Source of the DNA: Eledone cirrhosa
Lineage: Eukaryota
Assembly: GCA_964016885.1 (NCBI GenBank)
Contig: CAXHJY010001155.1
Location: forward strand, 62,001 to 126,000
DNA: 64,000 nucleotides
Direction of reading: 5' to 3'
A model generated the notes under the pieces. It made no database searches. It was not told where the DNA came from and worked only from the letters and a program-made list of their open reading frames with translations. Below, piece after piece: positions 14,899-51,777 of this stretch (position 1 is its first letter; each line of letters opens with the position of its first letter). A program made the translations under genes and the position numbers.

Positions 14899-15368
14899 AT
14901 CATCATCATCGACGTTTAACTTCCGTGTTCCACATTTGCATGGGTTTGGACGGGGGTATTTCCCACTTGAGGCAAGAGTGATTGTCTTGCTCGCATAGGA
15001 CTGTCTGGCGGGTTTTCTACAGCTGGATGCCCTTCCTAACACCAACCACATTTACAGTGTGGGGCTGGGAGGTTTTTACCGTGTTGCCTACACGGCGACA
15101 TTACAGCGTGGACTGTGTGTTTTTTGTCGTGACACCTACACAATCTCATTTGGTTCGGCCTGGATGTTGTGGCACCAACATAACTTTACATTGAAAGGGG
15201 CGGTGTGGATGGGGTGGGGGTGGTGCGACGGGGGTGTATTTTGTTAGAGATGCCTACTGATTGTAGTAGGTTTTACTTTGTATTTAGGTAAGGCGGGTCT
15301 TCTCTATTACTGAGTACCGCCAAAGGTCTCGGTCCAGTGTCATTGTCTTGGAGAGGTGTAAGTGTGTG
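14899..15368 (-). mobile_element. RTE family 2, 3' fragment (ORF end plus 3' UTR)
   Basis: [27 protein letters not shown] followed by a UTR nearly identical to 51382-51777. Confidence 0.9.
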
Positions 15369-15591
15369 TACATATATATATACATATATATATACATATA
15401 TATATATACATATATATATACATATATACATATATATATACATATATATATATACATATATATATATACATATATACATATATATATATATACATATATA
15501 TATACATATATATATACATATATATATACATATATATATATACATATATATACATATATATACACATATATATATATATATACATATATAT

Positions 15592-17640
15592 GTAGATGAA
15601 GCAGTCAAGGCCAAGAGACAGGCATGGAAAGAATGGAAGAACGGGGGGAGCAGGGTACATTACATAGAGACCAAGAGGGAAGCTAGGCGACAAGTATACT
15701 TAGCTAGGAGGGAAGCAGAGGATAGAAAATTCAAGCATGTTTTACAACGTGAGGACCAGAAACAGGAGGTATTCAAGATTGCGAGGCAGTGTGTCAGAGA
15801 TAGTTGTGATGTCATTGGAGAGAAGTGTATCCGGAATGATAAAGGTGAGCTTGCCCTCACAAGTGCTGAGAAGAAAGATGCATGGAAGAGTCATTATGAT
15901 AGATTACTAAATGAGGAGAATGCATGGGAAGAAGAGACCCTACCCCACGTAGACCCTATAGAGGGACCAGCAGTACAAGTCAGCGGCAGCGTAGTAAGTA
16001 AGGCAATCAGAGATATGAAGATAGGGAAGGCAACCGGTCCATCGGGTATAGCTGCCGAGATGCTGAAGGCATCTGGGTCTGTAGGTCACACTATAACCAC
16101 ACGTATCGTTAACCAGGTAATACTAGAGGGGGCCATACCAAAAGATTGGTGCAGTAGCACCATTGTCAACTGCTACAAAGGTAAAGGCGATGCACTAGAT
16201 AGAGGAAACTATAGAGGTATAAAGTTGATGGACCAGGTCATGAAAGTAACAGAAAGAGTTATAGCACAGCTGATTAGGGACCGGGTGAATATAGACGAGA
16301 TGCAATTTGGGTTTGTACCAGGGAAAGGCACCACTGATGCCCTCTTCCTTGTGAGGCAATTACAGGAAAAGTACCTAGCTAAAAGTAAGCCACTCTACTT
16401 GGCATTTGTCGACCTTGAGAAAGCCTTTGACAGAGTTCCACGTGCAGTAATCTGGTGGGCTCTTAGAAAACTAGGAGTAGATAAATGGCTTGTGAAAGCG
16501 GTACAAGCCATGTATAGGGGAGCAGTCAGCAAAGTTAGGATTGGCAATGAGTATAGCGAGGAATTTAGCGTACAGGTTGGGGTCCACCAGGGCTCTGTTC
16601 TTAGCCCTCTCCTGTTCATCATAGTCCTGCAGGCAATAACGGAGGAGTTTAAGACCGGATGCCCATGGGAACTCCTGTATGCTGATGACCTCGCACTCAT
16701 AGCTGAATCTATGGTAGAACTAGAGAATAAATTCCAAACCTGGAAGCAGGGACTAGAGAGAAAGGGCCTCAAAGTCAACATGACAAAGACTAAGGTCCTT
16801 ATAAGTAGACGAGAAAACAGAACCCAGATCCCCTCAGGGAAATGGCCTTGCTCAGTATGTAGGAAAGGTGTAGGTAGGAACTCCATTCTCTGCCCCAAAT
16901 GCAAACAATGGGTACACAAGAGATGTAGCGGGATCTCAGGAAGCTTAATTAAGAATGTAGGATTCACATGCAGCAGCTGTGCTGAAACAGCAAGCAAACA
17001 GCCACAGGAAACAAGTACCACCAATCTCTGGGAGGGCCCTGTAGAAACAGTAGACAGCTTCTGCTACCTAGGTGACCGAATTAGCAACGGAGGTGGGTGC
17101 TCAGAAAGTACAATAACTAGGGTAAGAACGGGATGGAAGAAGTTTAGGGAACTACTACCACTGCTAGCTGCAAAAGGCTTCTCCCTCAGAATGAAAGGCA
17201 GACTGTATGATGCGTGTATCCGAACAGCGATGTTGCATGGTAGTGAGACCTGGGCGCTGAAGGTGGAAGACTTACGTAGATTAGAGAGAAACGATGCCTG
17301 CATGCGCCGATGGATGTGTAACAGTAATATACGTGAACGACAAAGCATAAAGGAATTGAGAGAGAGACTGAGCATAAGAGGAATCAAATGCTGCGTGCAG
17401 GAGAGGCGGTTACGCTGGTATGGACATGTGATGCGTATGAAGGATGACAGCTGCATAAAAAGGTGCAGAGCACTAGAAGTTGATGGAAACCGCGGAGTGG
17501 GGAGACCCAAGATGACTTGGGATGAGGTGATAAAAGCCGACCTTACCCAACTACACCTCTCAAAGTCAATGACACACGACCGTGACTTCTGGCGTCACGC
17601 AGTAATACAGGGTACCCGACCTCCCATGGGTACATGCTGA
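15592..17640 (+). CDS. RTE reverse transcriptase (partial, no start codon) with PHD-like C4HC3 insert
   Basis: [46 protein letters not shown] and RRLRWYGHV motifs. The part of the ORF-track entry upstream of 15592 is microsatellite. Confidence 0.9.
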
Positions 17641-17939
17641 AGCATATAAACAATATGCCCCACCCCCCACCGCAAGGTGGGCGTGGAGGTGCCACGGCAA
17701 AAAAGCACCCAGCCCACACTGTAAAGTGGACGTGTAGGCGCCACGAAAAAGCACCCAGCACTCACTGTAAATGAGGTTGGTGTTAGGAAGGGCATCCAGC
17801 TGTAGAAATCAAGCCAGATCAGTTCCTGTATGAGCAAGGCATGGTCAGCCGACCAGACACTGCCCACAACAGGACAACCCGTCTAACCCATGCTAGCGTG
17901 GAAGAACGGACGTAAAACGGTGATGATGATGATGATGAT
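15592..17939 (+). mobile_element. RTE-clade LINE family 1, 5'-truncated, with (GAT)n tail
   Basis: Uninterrupted RT ORF to 17640, then a 3' UTR with a repeated AAAAAGCACCCAGC module; both ends abut (TA)n. Confidence 0.95.
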
Positions 17940-18063
17940 ATACATATATATATACATATATATATACATATATATACATATATATACATATATATATATA
18001 CATATATATATACATATATATATACATATATATATACATATATATATATACATACATATATAC

Positions 18064-18927: not shown

Positions 18928-18976
<49 letters not shown>

Positions 18977-18981
<5 letters not shown>

Positions 18982-19515
18982 AACTTTGGGAGGGTCATGT
19001 TGCCAATAAGAAACACATGCACTAGTTGCTTTCACTCCAATTTATAATCAATTAAAAAATGTTGTTTTTTTTAAATTATAAATTTATTAATTTCCGGTTG
19101 GTTGGATGGTTCCACAATCGGAGGGTTGTTCATATATTGTCAAAGTTCTTTCGTCACACATTCTGTGACCTCTTCAGTGACTGGGGATTCTTTTCTTTGT
19201 TTTGTGCCTCTCCTTTGTTCTGTCCTACGCCATCTTGTTTTTGTGTGCTTAGTTTGCGCATGTGTTACATCCAGGTGTCTGTGTGTGTTTTTATTTGTTT
19301 ATTTATTTGTTTATTTACATGTTACTGGTTGGTTGGTTGTTCTATGTGTTTTCAATTTGTCCTTAATTGTAAGTTGTGATGTTGCTATTCCATTCATGTT
19401 TTCTATTTAATTTTGTGAAAGCAACTGGTGCGTGTGTTTCTTATTGGCAACATGACCCTCCCAAAGTATAACAATATCGGTTTCAACGCACGTTTTCAGA
19501 TAAAGAATCTTGCTA
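18977..19515 (-). mobile_element. PLE pseudo-LTR insertion: long minus arm (18977-19412) plus short inverted plus arm with extra tail (19413-19515)
   Basis: Minus arm starts with LNRKHEWN (compare LNRKNEWN at the end of the 40855 ORF), contains an HHR and ends CATGACCCTCCCAAAGT; the same terminus is inverted in the second arm. Confidence 0.8.
19139..19181 (-). ncRNA. Minimal type I hammerhead ribozyme
   Basis: GUCA-CUGAAGA-G-GUCACA gaaug UGUGAC-GAAA-GAACU-U-UGAC: intact core, 6-bp stem II, 4-bp stem I, minimal stem III. Confidence 0.8.
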
Positions 19516-19531
19516 AACAAATTCAGAAACG

Positions 19532-19567
<36 letters not shown>

Positions 19568-37342: not shown

Positions 37343-37802
37343 TCATCATCATCAACGTTTAACGTCCGTGTTCCACACTTGCATGGGTTTGGACGGGGGT
37401 TTTCCCACTTGAGGCAAGAGTGATTGTCTTGCTCGCATAGGACTGTCTGGCGGGTTTTCTACAGCTGGATGCCCTTCCTAACACCAACCACATTTACAGT
37501 ATGGGGCTGGGAGGTTTTTACCGTGTTGCCTACACGGCCACATTACAGCGTGGAGTGTGTGTTTTTTTGTCGTGACACCTACACTATCTCATTTGTTTCG
37601 GCCTGGATGTTGTGGCACCAACATAACTTTACATTGAAAAGGGCAGTGTGGATGGGGTGGGGGTGGTGCGACGGGGTGTATTTTGTTAGAGATGCCTACT
37701 GACTGTAGTAGGATTTACTTTGTATTTAGGTACGGCGGGTCTTCTCTATTACTGAGTACCGCCATAGGTCTCGGTCCAGTGACATTGTCTTGGAGAGGTG
37801 TA
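37343..37802 (-). mobile_element. RTE family 2 3' fragment
   Basis: [24 protein letters not shown] plus UTR and (CAT)n tail. Confidence 0.9.
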
Positions 37803-38251
37803 CACATATATATATATACAGATATACATATATACAGATATATATATATATACAGATATACATATATACAGATATACATATATATATATATATATATATA
37901 CAGATATATATATATATATATATATACAGATATATATATATATACAGATATATATATATACAGATATATAGATATATATACAGATATATATATATATACA
38001 GATATATAGATATATATATATATACAGATATACATATATACATATACAGATATACATATATACAGATATATATATATATATATACAGATATATATATATA
38101 CAGATATATATATATACAGATATATATATATATATACAGACATATATATATACAGATATATATATATATATATATACAGATATATATATATATATACAGA
38201 TATATATATATACAGATATATATATATATACAGATATATATATATATACAT

Positions 38252-38676
38252 ATTGTTATACTTTGGGAGGGTCATGTTGCCAATAAGAAACACACGCAGA
38301 CGCCCGAATGTGGTGCATGCGCAGACTGAGCGCACGACGCGCACGCAGAGAGAGGGTGGCGTGGCATAGAAGGAGGGAGGGGCGCAGAGGCAGGGAGGGG
38401 AGTCCCCAGTCACTGGGGGGGTCGCGGACTGTGTGACGGGGGGACTGTGACTATGTATGTACAACTGTCTGGTTGTGGAGGCGGCCAGCCAACCAGAAAT
38501 TTGTAGGTTTGTAGATTTGTAAATTTATTAATTTAAAAATATGTAATAAATTGAAGTGAAAGCAACTGGTGCGTGTGTTTCTTATTGGCAACATGACCCT
38601 CCCAAAGTATAACAATATCGGTTTCAACACACGATTTCAGATAAAGAATCTTGCTAAACAAATTCAGAAACGAAAT
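38252..38676 (+). mobile_element. PLE pseudo-LTR insertion (short inverted arm ~38252-38297 plus long plus arm) with A-to-G hypermutated segment
   Basis: Same termini as the 19 kb element; ~38298-38520 is collinear with the reverse complement of ~19070-19285 but with many A replaced by G. Confidence 0.85.
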
Positions 38677-38686
38677 AGATATATAC

Positions 38687-38766
<80 letters not shown>

Positions 38767-38795
38767 GGAGGCCCATATATATATATGTATATATA

Positions 38796-39187
38796 TGGAG
38801 GCACATGGCTTAGTGGTTAGAGCATTGGCCTTGCAATCGAAAGGTTGTGAGTTCAACTCTCAGACCGAGTGATGTGTTGTTTGCTTGAGCAACGCACTTT
38901 ATTTCACATTCCTCCAGTTTACTCAGCTGTAGAAATGAGATGATAGGGACTGGGGTCCATATCATTCCACTGCAAAGTGGTCGTGGAGGTGCCATGGCTA
39001 AAAAGCACCCAGCACTCACTGTAAATGAGGTTGGTGTTAGGAAGGGCATCCAGCTGTAGAAATCAAGCCAGAATCAGTTCCCATATGAGCAAGCGGAGGT
39101 CAGCTAACCGGACACTGCCCACAACAGGACAACCTGTCTAACCCATGCTAGCGTGGAAGAATGGACGTAACACGGTAATGATGATGA
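38796..39187 (+). mobile_element. CORE-type SINE family B carrying the long RTE family 1 tail
   Basis: Family B head and body; after CAGTTCC the sequence follows 17826-17939. Confidence 0.9.
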
Positions 39188-39319
39188 TATATATACATAT
39201 ATAAAGGAACCAAATAAATATATATATTTTTTTTTAAATAAGACTCCAGTTGCATTTTCGATTTCATCTTTTTTCCTTATACTTTCACTTGTGTAGGACA
39301 ACTCGGTTATTTTTCATTT

Positions 39320-39404: not shown

Positions 39405-39439
<35 letters not shown>

Positions 39440-40854: not shown

Positions 40855-42267
40855 TTACACTTCTCTTAGGTCAGTGTTGTTTGTTTGGGTGTTGTTGTTA
40901 TTCCATTCATTCTTTCTGTTTAGCCTTGGTCTTCTAATTTCTATTTCCCTGGCCTCTCTGATTTGCCTATCTGCTGGGTCATTTCTATGTTTAGATATTA
41001 TTCTAATTTCTATGTTGTCTATGTTACCATCATGTTGTTGTCTAGCATGTTCGTATAGTACTGACCCGTTTTTTCGTCCTTTTAGTTCTCCCCAGTGTTG
41101 GTCTATCCTTTCACCTATGCTACGAGCTGTCTCACCTATGTATGTTGTTGTCATGTTTCTGCAAGTACCCTCTGTACATCTTATGCTATAGACTACGTTT
41201 CTAGTTTTACAGTTTATCCGGGGGTTCACCTTACATATGATACATTTCCTATTGGTACAGTGGGTTTTCTTAAAAGGGTAGGTTTTGCTGATCAGGGATT
41301 TTACCACCTTTATTTTTAAGTGGGTCTTTCTCAGGGCCTTTCTACACTGGTTAGCTAATTTCCCTCCAGGGGTAGCGTCCACAAACATGACACTCTGGTA
41401 TCTCTGGTTGTCGTACCATGAGGTGGCTTTCCCTATCTTATGTCTAGCCCTATCTACGCTATTCCATGATTTGCTCCTGTATAATGGGCAAATTCCTTTC
41501 ATGTCCAGTTCTATGAGGGTCTTATACTTCTCCATGGCTCCTTCGTATACTCTGATTCTGTCTCTTTGGTTGTAGCCAGAGAACTGCATGCGGTTGATGA
41601 AGTGTTGGATGTGTCTTTCCATTTCTGTTGGGTCGCACATGCGGGACACATTCTTCATCACTCGTACCAAATCTCTGATCAGAATATTAAACTTAGCACT
41701 ACTGGACATTGCTGAGTTTTTGAGTATCAGGTATTTGGAGGCCATGGGTTTAGCATAGTGTGAGTGGAGAATTTGGGCTCTCTCGTCTATAGTGTTAATC
41801 CAGAGTTCTGTGTCTAATACAGGTAGTCTATTGTTAGGGTGTTTGGAAGGGAAGTCGATAGTTACAGTTATACTCTGGTGTATGGAATTAGCTATCTGCT
41901 GGATGCTTTCCATCGTGCTACGTCCTAAATCAAACTTGTTAGTGCTCTCTAGTGGGGGTGTTCTTATAACTGTATTGATATCGTCTACATAACGAGAGTA
42001 CATGATGAGGTCTATGGAGCTCTCATTAAGGAGATCTTTAAGTCTCCTTTCCCACCATACCATGAAAGGGTTGGCAACATCACCAGCTATGCTGACGCCG
42101 ATGGCTGCTCCCTCATTTTGGGTGTAGATCTTCTCGTTGAACTTAAATATGTGGCCCTTTAGGGTAGTTTTGATACTAGCCCCTATTGCATGTGCGACCA
42201 TTTTTCTTACCTGATCATTGTTTTGGGGGGTCCATATAGCTTTGGTACATCCAATCCACCTTCCCAT
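40855..42267 (-). CDS. PLE polyprotein fragment (RT plus GIY-YIG endonuclease)
   Basis: 470-aa open frame containing the RT and GIY-YIG motifs. Confidence 0.85.
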
Positions 42268-42512
42268 GGGAATCTTTTGAGGTTATGGTGGGGGGTCTAC
42301 CTCTTATAGGTCTACTAGGGCAGAAACATCTAAGGCCATGGCTGTCTAGGTAGTCAGTGTCGTAGGTAAGTCTAAGTAGGAGGCCCAGTTCGTCTGTGTC
42401 GACGTCGCAGAACTCCACCTCACTCTCAATGATCATCTCCACACATCTTTTCACAGCAAAATCAATGTTAATGGATGGGTACAGTGACACCACATCCATG
42501 CTGCCTATAAAC

Positions 42513-42753: not shown

Positions 42754-42830
42754 ACGAAGGAAATGTGGTAAGGAACCAGGTGGACCATAACGCACCAAAG
42801 TACTCAATACTTGAGGTAGTAGAGTAGGTA

Positions 42831-42938
42831 ATAGGAACCAGTAAGACCCCGACAGCTGAGCTCAAGCCGTTTCGACGGCTAATTCTCAGAATTAGCCGTC
42901 GAAACGGCTTGAGCTCAGCTGTCGGGGTCTTACTGGTT

Positions 42939-42943
<5 letters not shown>
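42831..42943. repeat. Perfect palindrome with 56-bp arms and a 1-nt spacer
   Basis: ATAGGAACCAGTAAGACCCCGACAGCTGAGCTCAAGCCGTTTCGACGGCTAATTCT-C-AGAATTAGCC...TGGTTCCTAT. Confidence 0.95.
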
Positions 42944-43047: not shown

Positions 43048-43109
<62 letters not shown>

Positions 43110-43111
<2 letters not shown>

Positions 43112-43394
43112 TATACTTTGGGAGGGTCATGTTGCCAATAAGAAACACACGCACCAGTTGTTTACACTTCAATATATTATCATAAATTTATAAATTTAGG
43201 AATTTATAAATTTCCGCTTGGTTGGTTGGGTCCACAACCAGATGATAGTTCATATATTGGCAAAGTTCTTTCGTCACACATTATGTGACCTCTTCAGTGA
43301 CTGGGGATTATTTTCTTTGTTTTTGTGCCTCTCCTTAGTACTGTCCTATGCCCTCTTGTTTCTGTGTGTGTATTGTCAAATTCAGAAACGAAAT
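43110..43394 (-). mobile_element. PLE pseudo-LTR insertion with HHR (43259-43301) plus inverted tail remnant
   Basis: Sibling of the 19 kb element; minus strand GUCA-CUGAAGA-G-GUCACA..UGUGAC-GAAA-GAACUU; plus-strand CAAATTCAGAAACGAAAT at the right end. Confidence 0.85.
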
Positions 43395-45494: not shown

Positions 45495-47136
45495 TCATCA
45501 TCATCATCATCATCAACGTTTAACGTCCGTGTTCCACGCTTGCATGGGTTTGGACGGGGGTAGTCCCACTTGAGGCAAGAGTGATTGTCTTGCTCGCATA
45601 GGACTGTCTGGCAGGTTTTCTACAGTTGGATGCCCTTCCTAACACCAACCACATTTACAGTGTGGGTCTGGGAGGTTTTTACTGTGTTGCCTACACGGCC
45701 ACACTACAGCGTGGACTGTGTGTTTTTTTGTCGTGACACCTACACGATCTCATTTGTTTCGGCCTCGATGGCGCGGCACCAACATAACTTTACATAGAAC
45801 GGGGTGGTGGGACGGGGTGTATTTTGTTAGAGATGCCTACTGGCTGGAGTAGGTTTTACTATATATTTAGGTAAGGCGGGTCTTCTCTGTTACTGAGTAC
45901 CGCCAAAGGTCTCGGTCCAGTGACATTGTCTTGGAGAGGTGTAAGTGTGTGATGTCGGAGTTTATCAGCTCGTCCCAGGTTTTTCTAGGTCTGCCTATTC
46001 CGTGACTACCGTCTATCTTTATTGCCCTGCACTTTGTTATACAGCTATCGACTTTCATGCGCATCACGTGTCCATACCAACGTAGCCTTCTCTCGAGTAA
46101 ACAACATCTGATCCCTCTTATCTCTAATTTTTTCCTTAGTTCGTTTATGCTTTGCCGTTCACGTATATTACTGTTACACATCCAGCGGAGCATGCAAGCT
46201 TCGTTCCTCTCTAGTCTGCGTATATCCTCTGCACACAATGCCCAGGTCTCACTGCCATGCAGCATTGCTGTTCGTATGCAGGCATCGTACAACCTGCCTT
46301 TCATTTTTAGTGAGAACCCTTTAGCAGCTAATAGTGGTATAAGCTCTCTGAACTTTTTCCAACCAGTTCTGACTCTAGCTACAGTACTTTCAGAGCACCC
46401 TCCCCCACTGCTGATTTTATCGCCCAGGTAACGGAAGCTGTCCACTATTTCTATAGAACCCTCTGCGCAATTGAAAGAGCTAGTAGTTTGTGGGCACTTG
46501 CTGCTACTTATTGCACCAGAGCACCGGCCACATGTAAAATCTATGTTCTTAGTTAGCTTACCTGTGATCCCACTACATCTTTTATGCACCCATACTTTGC
46601 ATTTAGGACATAAAATGGAGTTTCTACCTACGCCTTTCCTACACACCGAGCACGACCATTTCCCAGAAGGGACCGCCGCCTTGTTTTCTTTCCTACAAAC
46701 TAGTACTTTGGTCTTAGCCAGGTTAATTTTAAGTCCTTTTGACTCTAGGCCGTGCTTCCATGTTTGGAATTTCTTCTCTAGCTCGGCCATTGATTCCGCT
46801 ATGAGTGTCAGGTCGTCTGCGTATAGGAGTTCCCATGGGCAGCCTGTCTTGAACTCCTCTGTTATAGCCTGAAGGGCAATAATAAATAGTAGTGGACTGA
46901 GAACAGAGCCCTGATGGACGCCAACTTTTACGCTAAACTCTTCACTATATTCGTTGTTAATTCTAACCTTGCTGACTGTTTCTTTATACATGGCTTGTAT
47001 AGCCCTCACAAGCCATTCGTCAACGCCTAGTTTTCTAAGAGCCCACCAGATAATGGAGCGGGGGACTCTGTCGAAGGCTTTCTCCAAGTCGACAAAAGCT
47101 AAGTAGAGGGGTTTACCTTTAGCTAGGTACTTCTCC
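45495..47136 (-). mobile_element. RTE family 2, 5'-truncated (open frame 47136 to 45867)
   Basis: [33 protein letters not shown]-like insert..RRLRWYGHV, then UTR and (CAT)n. Confidence 0.95.
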
Positions 47137-47158
47137 ATATATACATATATATATATAC

Positions 47159-47273
<115 letters not shown>

Positions 47274-47274
47274 C

Positions 47275-47333
<59 letters not shown>

Positions 47334-47489
47334 CATATATATATATATATATACATACATATATATATATATATATACATACATATATATATATATTATA
47401 TATATACAATTATATACATATATATACATATATATATATATACAATTATATACATATGTATACACATATATATATATATATATATATAA

Positions 47490-47811
47490 ATATCTTTAAG
47501 TCGTTTGGAAGCCTCGACAATGCAAATGGGTAAATCTCCGGGTAACAAGATCCGGTGGTGGAGAGAGAGATGTAAGTGGGTGTACGTTGAGATACGTGGT
47601 GTTTATAAGATGTGTAGAAGAATGAAGGAAAGAGCATAAAGGATAAAATAAAAATAACAACACGAGAGAGAGTTACATTGGGAGAGATTTAATAGTCCCT
47701 ATATATTTCGGATTCACATCCATCAACTGGGGGTTTTTCTGGGGTGGGGGAAGGTTGTCTGTCGGTAAGGTGCGAAACGCGTCCTCCGCTGTTTGTTGTT
47801 TTGAATATCAA

Positions 47812-48180: not shown

Positions 48181-48403
48181 TATACATATACATATATATA
48201 TAGACATATTTATATATACATATTTATATATACATATACATATATACATATTTATATATACATATATATATATACATATATGTATACATATATATATATA
48301 TACATATATGTATTCATATATATATATACATATATGTATACATATATATAAATATATGTATACATATATATACATATATGTGTATATATATATATATATA
48401 TAC

Positions 48404-48443
<40 letters not shown>

Positions 48444-48453
48444 GTATATATAC

Positions 48454-48491
<38 letters not shown>

Positions 48492-48501
48492 GTATATATA
48501 T

Positions 48502-48550
<49 letters not shown>

Positions 48551-48561
48551 CATATATATAC

Positions 48562-48594
<33 letters not shown>

Positions 48595-51500
48595 GAGAGA
48601 GTGAACGACAGAATAATTAAAACAAGACTTGTCCTCAATAGAACTATGGTGACAGTAATATCTGCGTACGCACTCCAATCCGGACTGCCCGGCACTATAA
48701 AAGTCAGATTCTATGAGACATTGATGCTCGCTACCTCCCAAATAACCGACAGTGACTATATAATTATTGCAGGCGACCTAAATGGTCACGTTGGACAATA
48801 TTGTGACGGCTACAACGAAATCCATGGAGGCTATGGGTTTGGTACTAGAAATGAGGAAGACTCCAGAATCCTGGAATTCTGTGACGCAAATAACCTAACT
48901 ATCTGTAACACTAACGTAAAAAAACGTGACAATCACCTGATCACCTATAGATCCGGGGAACACACAAGCCAGGTAGATTATATCCTTACCAGAAGACGTG
49001 ATAGAGTGTCTGTTGTAAACACTAAATCCCTCCCCCATGAAGAATGCACCTCCCAACATAGACTGATAATTAGCGACCTCGTAGTCAGGACGAGACGTAC
49101 TCGACAGCAGAAGAGGACTATCCTCAGGAGAAAAATATGGAAGCTAAAGGACCCCACAGCCAGAAATAAATTTCAAAGCATATTACTTGATGCTTTCGAC
49201 AGTAAGGAAGAGCATTTAGAGTCGGACACTATAGAGGGACAGTGGGAATTTCTGAAAGCAAACCTGCTGATGGCGGCAGACGATGTCTGTGGCTGGAGCA
49301 GGCCTGTAGGCAGGAGGAGAGTAACATGGTGCTGGAACAGTAAGGTGGAGGGGTCAATTAAGGCCAAAAAGCAGGCTTGGAAAGTATGGCGGGATGGGGG
49401 AAGTAGAGAAGACTATCAAGTGGCCAGGAGGGAAGCTAGGAGACAAGTGTACTTCGCAAGAAGGGAAGCAGGGGAAAGAAAGTTCAAGCATGTTCTACAA
49501 CGCGAGGACCAAAAACGTGAGGTGTTCAGGATTGCTAGGCAATGTGTCAAGGAAAACCGTGATATTGTCGGGGAGAAGTGTGTACTTAATGATGACGGCG
49601 TACTTTCCATCACCGACACTGATAAGAAGGTAGCTTGGAAGTGTCACTATGAAAGGCTACTAAATGCGGAGAATAAATGGGAGAAAGACAGTCTCCCCCA
49701 CATCGACCCAATAGAGGGACCAGCAGTGTTAGTCGAGGGTAGTATAATAAGTAAGGCAATCAAGGATATGAAGACGGGTAAGGCGGCTGGGCCTTCGGAA
49801 ATAGTTGCTGAGATGCTGAAGGCATCTGGCACGGTGGGACACACCATGGTCACCCGGATAGTTAACCAAGTCGTACAGAATGGGGTTGTTCCGAAGGACT
49901 GGCATAGCAGCATCATCGTTAACTGTTATAAGGGTAAAGGAGATGCCCTAGATAGGAGTAACTATAGAGGCATTAAATTAATCGACCAGGTCATGAAGGT
50001 CACAGAAAAAGTAATAGCGCAACTAATCAGAGAGAGAATTGACATAGATGAAATGCAGTTCGGGTTTGTGTCAGGCAAAAGTACCACAGACGCTCTTTTC
50101 ATTGTACGACAACTACAGGAGAAGTACCTAGCTAAAGGTAAACCCCTATACTTAGCTTTTGTCGACTTGGAGAAAGCCTTCGACAGAGTCCCCCGTTCTA
50201 TTATCTGGTGGGCTCTTAGAAAACTAGGTGTTGACGAATGGCTTGTGAGAGCTATACAAGCCATGTATAAAGAAACAGTCAGCAAGGTTAGAAATAACAA
50301 CGAATATAGTGAAGAATTTAGCGTAAAAGTTGGCGTCCATCAGGGCTCTGTTCTCAGCCCCCTACTATTTATTATTGCCCTTCAGGCTATAACAGAGGAG
50401 TTCAAGACTGGTTGCCCATGGGAACTCCTATACGCAGACGACCTAACACTCATAGCTGAATCAATGGCCGAGCTAGAGAAGAAATTCCAAACATGGAAGC
50501 ACGGCCTAGAATCAAAAGGCCTTAAAATTAACCTGGCTAAGACTAAAGTTCTAGTTTGTAGGAAAGAAAATAAGGCGGCGGTCCCTTCCGGGAAATGGCC
50601 ATGCTCAGTGTGTAGGAAAGGCGTAGGTAGAAACTCCATTTTATGTCCCAAATGCAAAGTATGGGTGCATAAAAGATGTAGTGGGATCACAGGTAAGCTA
50701 ACTAAGAACATAGATTTTACATGTGGCCGATGCTCTGGTGCAATAAGTAGCAGCAAGTGCCCACAAAATACTAGCTCTTACAACTGCGCAGAGGGCTCTA
50801 TAGAAATAGTGGACAGCTTCCGTTACCTGGGTGACAAAATCAGCAGTGGAGGAGGGTGCTCTGAAAGTACAGTAGCTAGAGTCAGAACTGGATGGAAAAA
50901 GTTCAGAGAGCTTATACCACTATTAGCCGCTAAAGGGTTCTCCCTAAAAATGAAAGGCAGGTTGTATGATGCCTGCATACGAACAGCAATGTTGCATGGC
51001 AGTGAGACCTGGGCATTGTGTGCAGAGTATATACGCAGACTAGAGAGGAACGAAGCTTGCATGCTCCGCTGGATGTGTAATAGTAATATACGTTAACGGC
51101 AAAGCCTAAACGAACTAAGGAAAAAATTAGAAATAAGAGGGATCAGATGTTGTTTACTCGAGAGAAGGCTACGTTGGTATGGACACGTGATGCGCATGAA
51201 AGTCGATAGCTGTATAACAAAGTGCAGGGCAATAAAGATAGACGATAGCCACGGAATAGGCAGACCTAGAAAAACCTGGGACGAGCTGATATACTCCAAC
51301 CTCACCCACTTACACCTCTCGAAGACAATGTCACTGGACCTTTGGCGGTACTCAGTAATAGAGAAGACCCGCCTTACCTAAATACAAAGTAAATCCTACT
51401 ACAGTCAGTAGGCATCTCTAACAAAATACACCCCCGTCCCACCACCCCCACCCCATCCACACCACCCCCTTCTATGTAAAGTTATGTTGGTGCCACACCA

Positions 51501-51777
51501 TCCAGGCCGAAACAAATGAGATCGTGTAGGTGTCACGACAAAAAAAAACACACAGTCCACGCTGTAATGTGGCCGTGTAGGCAACACGGTAAAAACCTCC
51601 CAGCCCCACACTGTAAATGTGGTTGATATTAGGAAGGGCATCCAACTGTAGAAAACCTGCCAGACAGTCCTATGCGAGCAAGACAATCACTCTTGCCTCA
51701 AGTGGGAAAACCCCCGTCCAAACCCATGCAAGCGTGGGACACGGACGTTAAACGTTGATGATGATGATGATGATGAT
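48595..51777 (+). mobile_element. RTE family 2, longest copy (partial APE endonuclease plus RT), one premature stop
   Basis: [24 protein letters not shown] and SQHRLII (APE), then RT motifs; TAA at 51094 where the sibling has GAA; frame continues to 51381; (GAT)n tail. Confidence 0.95.

Follow-up and report, generated by a model that had tools for sequence, protein, structure and literature searches.

Adenosine-to-guanosine scars in Penelope-like insertions of Eledone cirrhosa suggest retrotransposition of ADAR-edited RNA

The window analyzed here, a 64,000-nucleotide stretch of Eledone cirrhosa DNA, contains a short repeat insertion at positions 38250–38676 in which G stands at many sites where related copies have A, raising the question of how such a one-way change could be written into a genome. 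A preliminary description ascribed it to ADAR hyper-editing of a folded, inverted retroelement transcript that was later retrotransposed. We compared the insertion with a majority reference of its young subfamily, script-built from genome copies, and A>G calls were read from the assembled genome sequence. The features of the window used below are as follows.

37801–38249, no strand: TA-rich microsatellite, the left target flank (read from sequence)
38250–38298, minus: inverted arm of 49 bp, unedited, exact reverse complement of 38570–38618
38288–38298, no strand: head-to-head arm junction, an 11-nt overlap of the two alignments, 10/11 matching the sense reference
38288–38676, plus: forward arm of 389 nt with tail, a 5'-truncated Penelope-like 3' end (pseudo-LTR plus tail)
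38302–38543, plus: A>G hypermutated segment, 43 of 103 adenosines changed relative to the family majority
38408–38452, plus: minimal hammerhead-like motif (by-eye reading of the unedited family form)
38544–38676, plus: unedited 3' end with 0 of 51 A changed, matching the family majority throughout
38619–38676, plus: optional tail between the two 3' end sites, part of the unedited 3' end
38677–38767, no strand: TA microsatellite, the right target flank (read from sequence)
18973–19535, two-arm build: older unedited sibling, long arm on minus (18973–19415), short tailed arm on plus (19415–19535)
43104–43376, minus: older unedited sibling, without a T>C scar

The forward arm aligns collinearly with the final 389 nt of the family reference, which carries the ORF P0001, and the inverted arm begins at the upstream one of the family's two 3' end sites. 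Judged from its sequence, the window copy is the 3' end of a Penelope-like element (PLE) inserted in a TA tract, with a junction at 38288–38298 that suggests a microhomology join of two cDNA 3' ends. Alignment of 38288–38676 with the young-subfamily majority was gapless and gave 44 A>G, 2 C>T, 1 G>A, no T>C and 7 transversions; 43 of the A>G were counted, the one at 38296 being ambiguous because of its place in the arm junction. The excess of A>G over other transitions is pronounced (binomial p ~1e-16). Over the first 260 aligned bases G+C went from 0.38 in the reference to 0.54, in line with the GC enrichment that had been proposed. The copy had also been described as collinear with its siblings at 19 kb and 43 kb with A replaced by G, and indeed it shows 40 A>G and 2 G>A against the former, 38 A>G and 1 G>A against the latter. 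Both siblings are only 83–84% identical to the young reference, and we rejected them as the source, since they are older relatives. About 21 A>G had been counted over 38376–38459, and 21 were found there against the majority reference, with one other change. The scar had been drawn as ending at 38520 but runs to 38543, and the unaffected 3' end, given as some 150 bp, does exist (0/51 A) but measures about 130 nt.

Hammerhead activity depends on known core requirements. Because all core adenosines and the cleavage-site base of the motif at 38408–38452 are G in the window copy, its putative ribozyme is predicted to be dead. Folding of an unedited copy recovered the hammerhead-like stems in part, with a z-score of 0, and a search of Rfam returned no match for the motif.

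The family has a single 919-residue frame, P0001, combining a reverse transcriptase (RT) with a C-terminal GIY-YIG domain. Its RVT_1 match is weak (E 9e-4, failing the cut-off); by eye, the GIY-YIG core has the two internal Cys and two His of the CCHH motif, and GIY-YIG clusters, at 13–18% of members, are among the Atlas neighbours of the C-terminus. P0001 also contains C-x4-C-x2-C, comparable to the extra CX2-5CxxC motif upstream of GIY-YIG that marks the Neptune/Nematis PLE clades in the available text of PMC8557442. Two 3' end sites lying 58 nt apart take 153 of 166 arms (75 at the upstream site, 78 at the tail site). Arms sit in TA tracts, often head to head with a second, inverted arm; partial tandems occur, and one insertion has a target duplication of ~14 bp. 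With its RT-EN ORF, pseudo-LTR, tail and inverted or tandem builds, the family classes as an EN+ PLE. It resembles the described EN+ PLEs (Neptune/Nematis type; PAc of Anolis) in the single RT-EN ORF and the pseudo-LTR with a hammerhead-like motif (PMC8557442, PMC3846280, PMC11167929), and further in the optional tail between two start sites, the inverted 5'-truncated arm, the partial tandems and the TA targets; the tail is 58 nt here versus 30–40 nt in the elements described there.

Some further observations concern coding regions and small insertions. In copy L126:4600-5101 (minus strand), an AAC/ACA-rich repeat and then a further coding-like stretch lie 5' of the long RT-EN frame; the stretch is possibly an intron or a split N-terminus. 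Window positions 40855–42282 (minus) hold a 475-residue open frame that covers an RT end and a GIY-YIG domain and belongs to another, more distant Penelope-like family; TA tracts interrupt it upstream. At 42819–42940 a perfect hairpin with 60-bp arms forms another small inverted-arm insertion between TA tracts, and ends related to it occur at 39438 and 42755.

When the genome was searched with the edited segment as DNA query, A>G-rich copies ranked at the top. A 34-nt core of the repeat occurs in its A state in 8517 exact copies in the 3.0-Gb assembly, of which the window occupies part of contig C1182. A pattern forcing one A>G retrieved 47 arms, 24 on the forward and 23 on the reverse assembly strand, and 26 of the 47 had further A>G in the same 34-mer (up to 9/11); the mirror pattern forcing one T>C retrieved 13 arms, one with a second change. 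Among 195 arms, a sample enriched for A>G by design and hence not an estimate of frequency, the largest cluster per 150 nt comprised at least six A>G in 41 arms and at least six G>A in 5, the latter being older, generally diverged copies. No T>C or C>T cluster of that size was present in the 195 arms (T>C maximum 4). Defining an edited insertion by at least 7 A>G per 150 nt and 2.5 times the other transitions, we obtained at least 23 insertions, with 933 A>G, 28 G>A, 19 C>T, 9 T>C and 87 transversions on the ORF strand. The one-way change on the element's sense strand, expected from the window copy, thus holds against the subfamily reference, and further sense A>G clusters do exist, in these PLE insertions and in one RTE copy. 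Since 9 of the 11 arms retrieved by a second search pattern had already been found, insertions edited in the pseudo-LTR would number in the tens, with copies edited only in the ORF coming on top. At most 185 of 8702 arms have any A>G in the 34-mer. Simple counts of copies with at least one change (A>G 185 over 11 sites, T>C 117 over 6) were tried as a test and gave no separation, because background single changes dominate them; the clustering tests do discriminate. A scan over 244,024 covered positions of the retrieved DNA gave 45 A>G/T>C clusters, all in the Penelope-like family or RTE, versus 5 small G>A/C>T clusters.

The polarity of the change is clear. An APOBEC-type G>A origin of the difference was rejected, as it had been in the preliminary description: A is the state of the 8517 exact copies and of the open ORF, and G>A numbers 28 against 933 A>G. 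Across the 23 insertions, the editing rate depends on the 5' neighbour, being 433/1451 after A (0.30), 232/803 after T (0.29), 166/880 after C (0.19) and 102/816 after G (0.125; p 1e-18). It also depends on the 3' neighbour, with 262/792 before G (0.33) versus 0.18–0.24 before other bases (p 9e-12). In the window copy alone this signal is modest (4/20 edited with 5'G, 39/81 with others). Depletion of 5'G, with 5' U/A and 3'G favoured, is the ADAR preference in all metazoans examined, according to the available text of PMC9989829, so the suspicion of an ADAR-like neighbour bias was borne out. The insertions show clustered A>G on the RNA-sense strand with a neighbour bias on both sides, two features of the ADAR hyper-editing signature. 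ADAR-type deaminase loci lie on three chromosomes, and one exon has intact HAE and PCGD motifs. We consider it very probable that the scars stem from ADAR editing of RNA followed by retrotransposition; an ADAR would be the enzyme responsible.

Each insertion has its own pattern of edits. Over 97 pairs the Jaccard index had a median of 0.31 and a maximum of 0.52, and among 17 insertions no pattern was common to any two. Private patterns of this kind mean that the edited copies form no subfamily. Site sharing exceeds a uniform model (1229 observed, 926 expected), and this excess is what ADAR site preference gives.

The preliminary description missed that the mirrored arms of one insertion carry the same edits. 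In 12 head-to-head insertions, 279 edits are common to both arms and 10 are private. These 12 were drawn from 15 multi-arm regions examined; the count excludes a perfect palindrome with 87 shared edits and no private ones, a pair within a 5-kb inverted duplication with 27 and 3, and an older copy with 8 and 2. Arms of one insertion differ at about 1% of other sites (30/3171), and no region among the 15 pairs a clean with an edited arm. Between an edited insertion and a separate copy lying 0.8 kb away, 0 of 31 edits are common, and most two-arm insertions, serving as controls, are clean. Three insertions are non-nested, in that one arm carries the tail while the other extends 279, 780 or 907 nt farther in the 5' direction; they have 65 shared edits and 2 private ones. 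Since neither arm contains the other, neither can be a DNA copy of the other, and both need a sense template. The sharing of edits between arms implies that the A>G changes arose before integration and rules out damage in place; a read-strand artefact is unlikely because the pattern recurs on opposite strands. Because edited RNAs are rare and the pattern is private to each, one RNA molecule most likely served twice. Our data thus make it quite likely that, in each two-arm insertion, both arms were reverse-transcribed from one edited sense-strand RNA.

In a three-arm insertion at G000:C3:328617265-328623342, made up of an inverted arm, a tandem pseudo-LTR and a full-length copy, 10 edits are common to all three. 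It may extend the single-RNA reading to tandems, an already edited master being the alternative there. In two arms of this insertion, a G run made by editing in the hammerhead core has grown to 11–13 G. Two of the regions left out of the arm count have unusual builds. G000:C22:15915152-15917173 is a perfect 2022-bp palindrome without spacer, with 87 edits in both arms and the tail on one side only, and is either a fold-back product or an assembly effect. G000:C2:324749794-324761212 is an inverted duplication with arms of ~5 kb that contains an edited PLE copy.

The 3' end of the element is spared. In the last 125 nt, 2 of 867 A are edited across the insertions, compared with 435 of 2127 over the adjoining 250 nt. 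A full fold-back would pair the 70 nt that precede the upstream end site, yet these are clean. Local structure was rejected as the cause, given that folding revealed no special structure (z-score +1.1). Such a clean stretch would call for protection by protein or a shorter duplex; that the protein is bound RT is a guess. As to the duplex, the preliminary reading of a folded, hyper-edited and retrotransposed transcript agrees with the one-way spectrum, the ADAR bias and the further copies with private patterns. Its inverted partner at this locus did not hold up, for the 49-bp arm of the window copy is unedited, has no overlap with the scar and is not the edited duplex. No duplex partner of the window copy was found at the window locus, and the search for its source locus found none. 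The 43-kb sibling was rejected as an in-place partner for want of a complementary T>C scar, and no edited antisense arm was seen in PLE copies (no T>C cluster in 195 arms). Two-arm loci are common in the family.

We propose that part of a young Penelope-like sense transcript forms a duplex; the simplest route would be to fold onto the inverted arm that many family insertions carry, another to pair with antisense RNA. ADAR would then turn 10–50% of the transcript's adenosines into inosine but leave the last ~125 nt untouched; copying this RNA at a germ-line TA target, the element's RT would read I as G. There would be two rounds of copying, one from each nicked target strand, that begin at internal start sites 58 nt apart, and the two cDNA ends would be joined head to head. 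The window copy may be such a product: its long arm is edited, and its second arm, at 49 bp, stops short of the edits. We infer the duplex, the sequence in which the RT passes occurred and fixation in the germ line. A PLE protein has been described in vitro to cut and extend both target strands from two internal start sites (PMC11167929, in its available text). The origin of inverted and tandem PLE structures is called undefined in the part of PMC8557442 available, and self-priming on an antisense template was proposed for them in PMC3846280. An antisense template would leave T>C, so the edits speak against that proposal as far as its available text goes, and instead point to a sense template that served two or more times in each insertion. 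On balance it appears likely that edited retroelement RNAs enter the germ line as a regular, countable class (tens in the Penelope family, also RTE LINEs and possibly multi-kb read-through transcripts), that their edits act as barcodes, that a single sense RNA is copied two or three times by the PLE RT, which starts at two sites and uses both target strands to build the inverted arm and the tandem pseudo-LTR, and that the last ~125 nt lies out of ADAR's reach.

A similar scar occurs in an RTE LINE. The forced-A>G pattern for this element had four matches, one of them hypermutated, with 16 A>G in a sense fragment and 5 same-strand A>G in an inverted fragment 1.2 kb upstream. Same-strand edits in both fragments are predicted by a folded (hairpin) transcript. 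Of the 15 clustered sense edits, 12 lie outside the visible partner arm. The copy belongs to a group of three one-strand A>G clusters within 6.7 kb, among TA satellite, at G000:C1558:10363-17730; none occurs elsewhere in this 86-kb contig. The clusters lie in:

the RTE sense fragment (15–16 A>G)
the 82-nt inverted RTE fragment (5 A>G)
a PLE ORF fragment 5 kb further upstream (14 A>G)

They are possibly one long edited read-through RNA retrotransposed whole, or an in-place write-back of editing. The idea of an RTE block ending inside its antisense arm was weakened by the third same-strand cluster 5 kb further upstream. A junction search for the RTE source locus did not find it and returned two unrelated unedited copies with the same truncation point. 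Three unrelated RTE copies (G000:C1:144034442, C1019:106565 and C1558:10946) have one 5' truncation point, adjoining a TA tract. The window itself contains young RTE LINEs, whose RT is followed by a C4 zinc-finger-like insert, at 15292–17940 (plus), 45495–47495 (minus) and 48352–51776 (plus), and at 38786–39190 tRNA-headed SINEs whose 3' tail is common with RTE LINEs.

Several other origins of the scars have to be weighed. Long inverted repeats and TA tracts flank many copies, and one perfect 2-kb palindrome and one case in a 5-kb inverted duplication (both outside the arm count) would suit a sequencing or assembly artefact beside such structures. We regard this as extremely unlikely, as A>G tracks the element's sense and not the assembly strand (24 forward, 23 reverse), mirror arms show one pattern on opposite strands, single-arm copies, the window copy included, lack a hairpin spanning the scar, the majority of two-arm insertions are clean, and the neighbour context is that of ADAR. 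Misincorporation of dC opposite A by RT under unbalanced dNTP pools would also leave some new insertions, a minority, with private bursts of A>G on the sense strand. Two passes would err independently, yet non-nested arms share 65 of 67 changes; moreover, such errors leave 5'G depletion with 3'G enrichment without a reason and do not account for patches with boundaries within long arms or for the two RTE hairpin arms being edited on the same strand, so that we give this origin a very slim chance. Adenine deamination of DNA, by ADAR on an RNA:cDNA hybrid or R-loop or by a TpA-type mutator acting after insertion, draws some support from the reported editing by ADAR of the DNA strand of hybrids in vitro (PMC12925331, available text), and the three one-strand clusters within 6.7 kb on contig C1558 would fit a process in place. 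Editing of the cDNA strand, however, would read as sense T>C, which is absent, and damage after insertion would strike two arms independently. Only one strand is affected, AA is edited as often as TA and the change is thus not TpA-specific, and in the window contig no other repeat within 104 kb around the copy has an A>G or T>C cluster. DNA deamination is accordingly improbable to a high degree.

Even with ADAR as the editor, the arms could match for another reason, either conversion between them after insertion or a source copy already edited in DNA. Palindromes can convert, the perfect palindrome fits a fold-back, and the three-arm case could descend from an edited master. Against these, no pattern is shared in 17 insertions, so that no edited master with offspring is seen; arms differ at about 1% of other sites, no clean and edited arm are paired in the 15 regions, and edit density is similar in the unpaired part of long arms. 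We judge both unlikely, while granting them a chance worth keeping in mind. That the G-rich form might be an ordinary subfamily with a balanced spectrum had been raised at the outset, and sites are indeed shared beyond the uniform model (1229 vs 926). Overlap never exceeds 0.52, however, as site preference would give, common diagnostic changes other than A>G are missing and the spectrum is one-way, leaving this explanation a negligible probability. The reading that ADAR-edited RNA was retrotransposed is the one we retain.

Related phenomena are known. A>G hypermutation has been attributed to ADAR in avian retroviruses (a Rous-associated virus U3 variant, an avian leukosis virus inverted repeat) and in HTLV-2/STLV-3 (PMC12925331, available text). 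The present copies are like these in their A>G clusters near 50% of A, in the inverted-repeat RNA and in being carried into DNA by RT; unlike the retroviral cases, which are single infectious or cultured clones, they are recurring chromosomal retrotransposon insertions with two comparable arms. Strand-specific, context-biased hypermutation of single retained copies is likewise a feature of APOBEC 'DNA editing' of vertebrate LTR retrotransposons, as the accessible portions of PMC4866542 and PMC2873906 describe it, but that change is G>A and here it is A>G. Density, clustering and neighbour preference resemble ADAR hyper-editing of repeat-derived dsRNA (PMC5625713 and PMC9989829, where available); such hyper-editing is known from RNA reads, whereas here the same pattern stands in genomic DNA. 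A search of largely open-access full texts found neither ADAR-type A>G genomic retrotransposon copies nor their use for tracing PLE templates. The use of shared arm edits as a template barcode for PLE insertions is new here.

On the reading favoured here, the edited insertions would be a DNA record of germ-line ADAR activity, and would mark a route from RNA editing to inherited sequence in which a ribozyme core is killed, G+C is raised and new G runs arise. They would tell which strand was the template, how many RNA molecules went into an insertion and which 3' stretch must stay intact. The formation of inverted and tandem PLE structures thereby becomes testable from genome sequence alone, and the A>G screen is applicable to any assembly with young retroelements.
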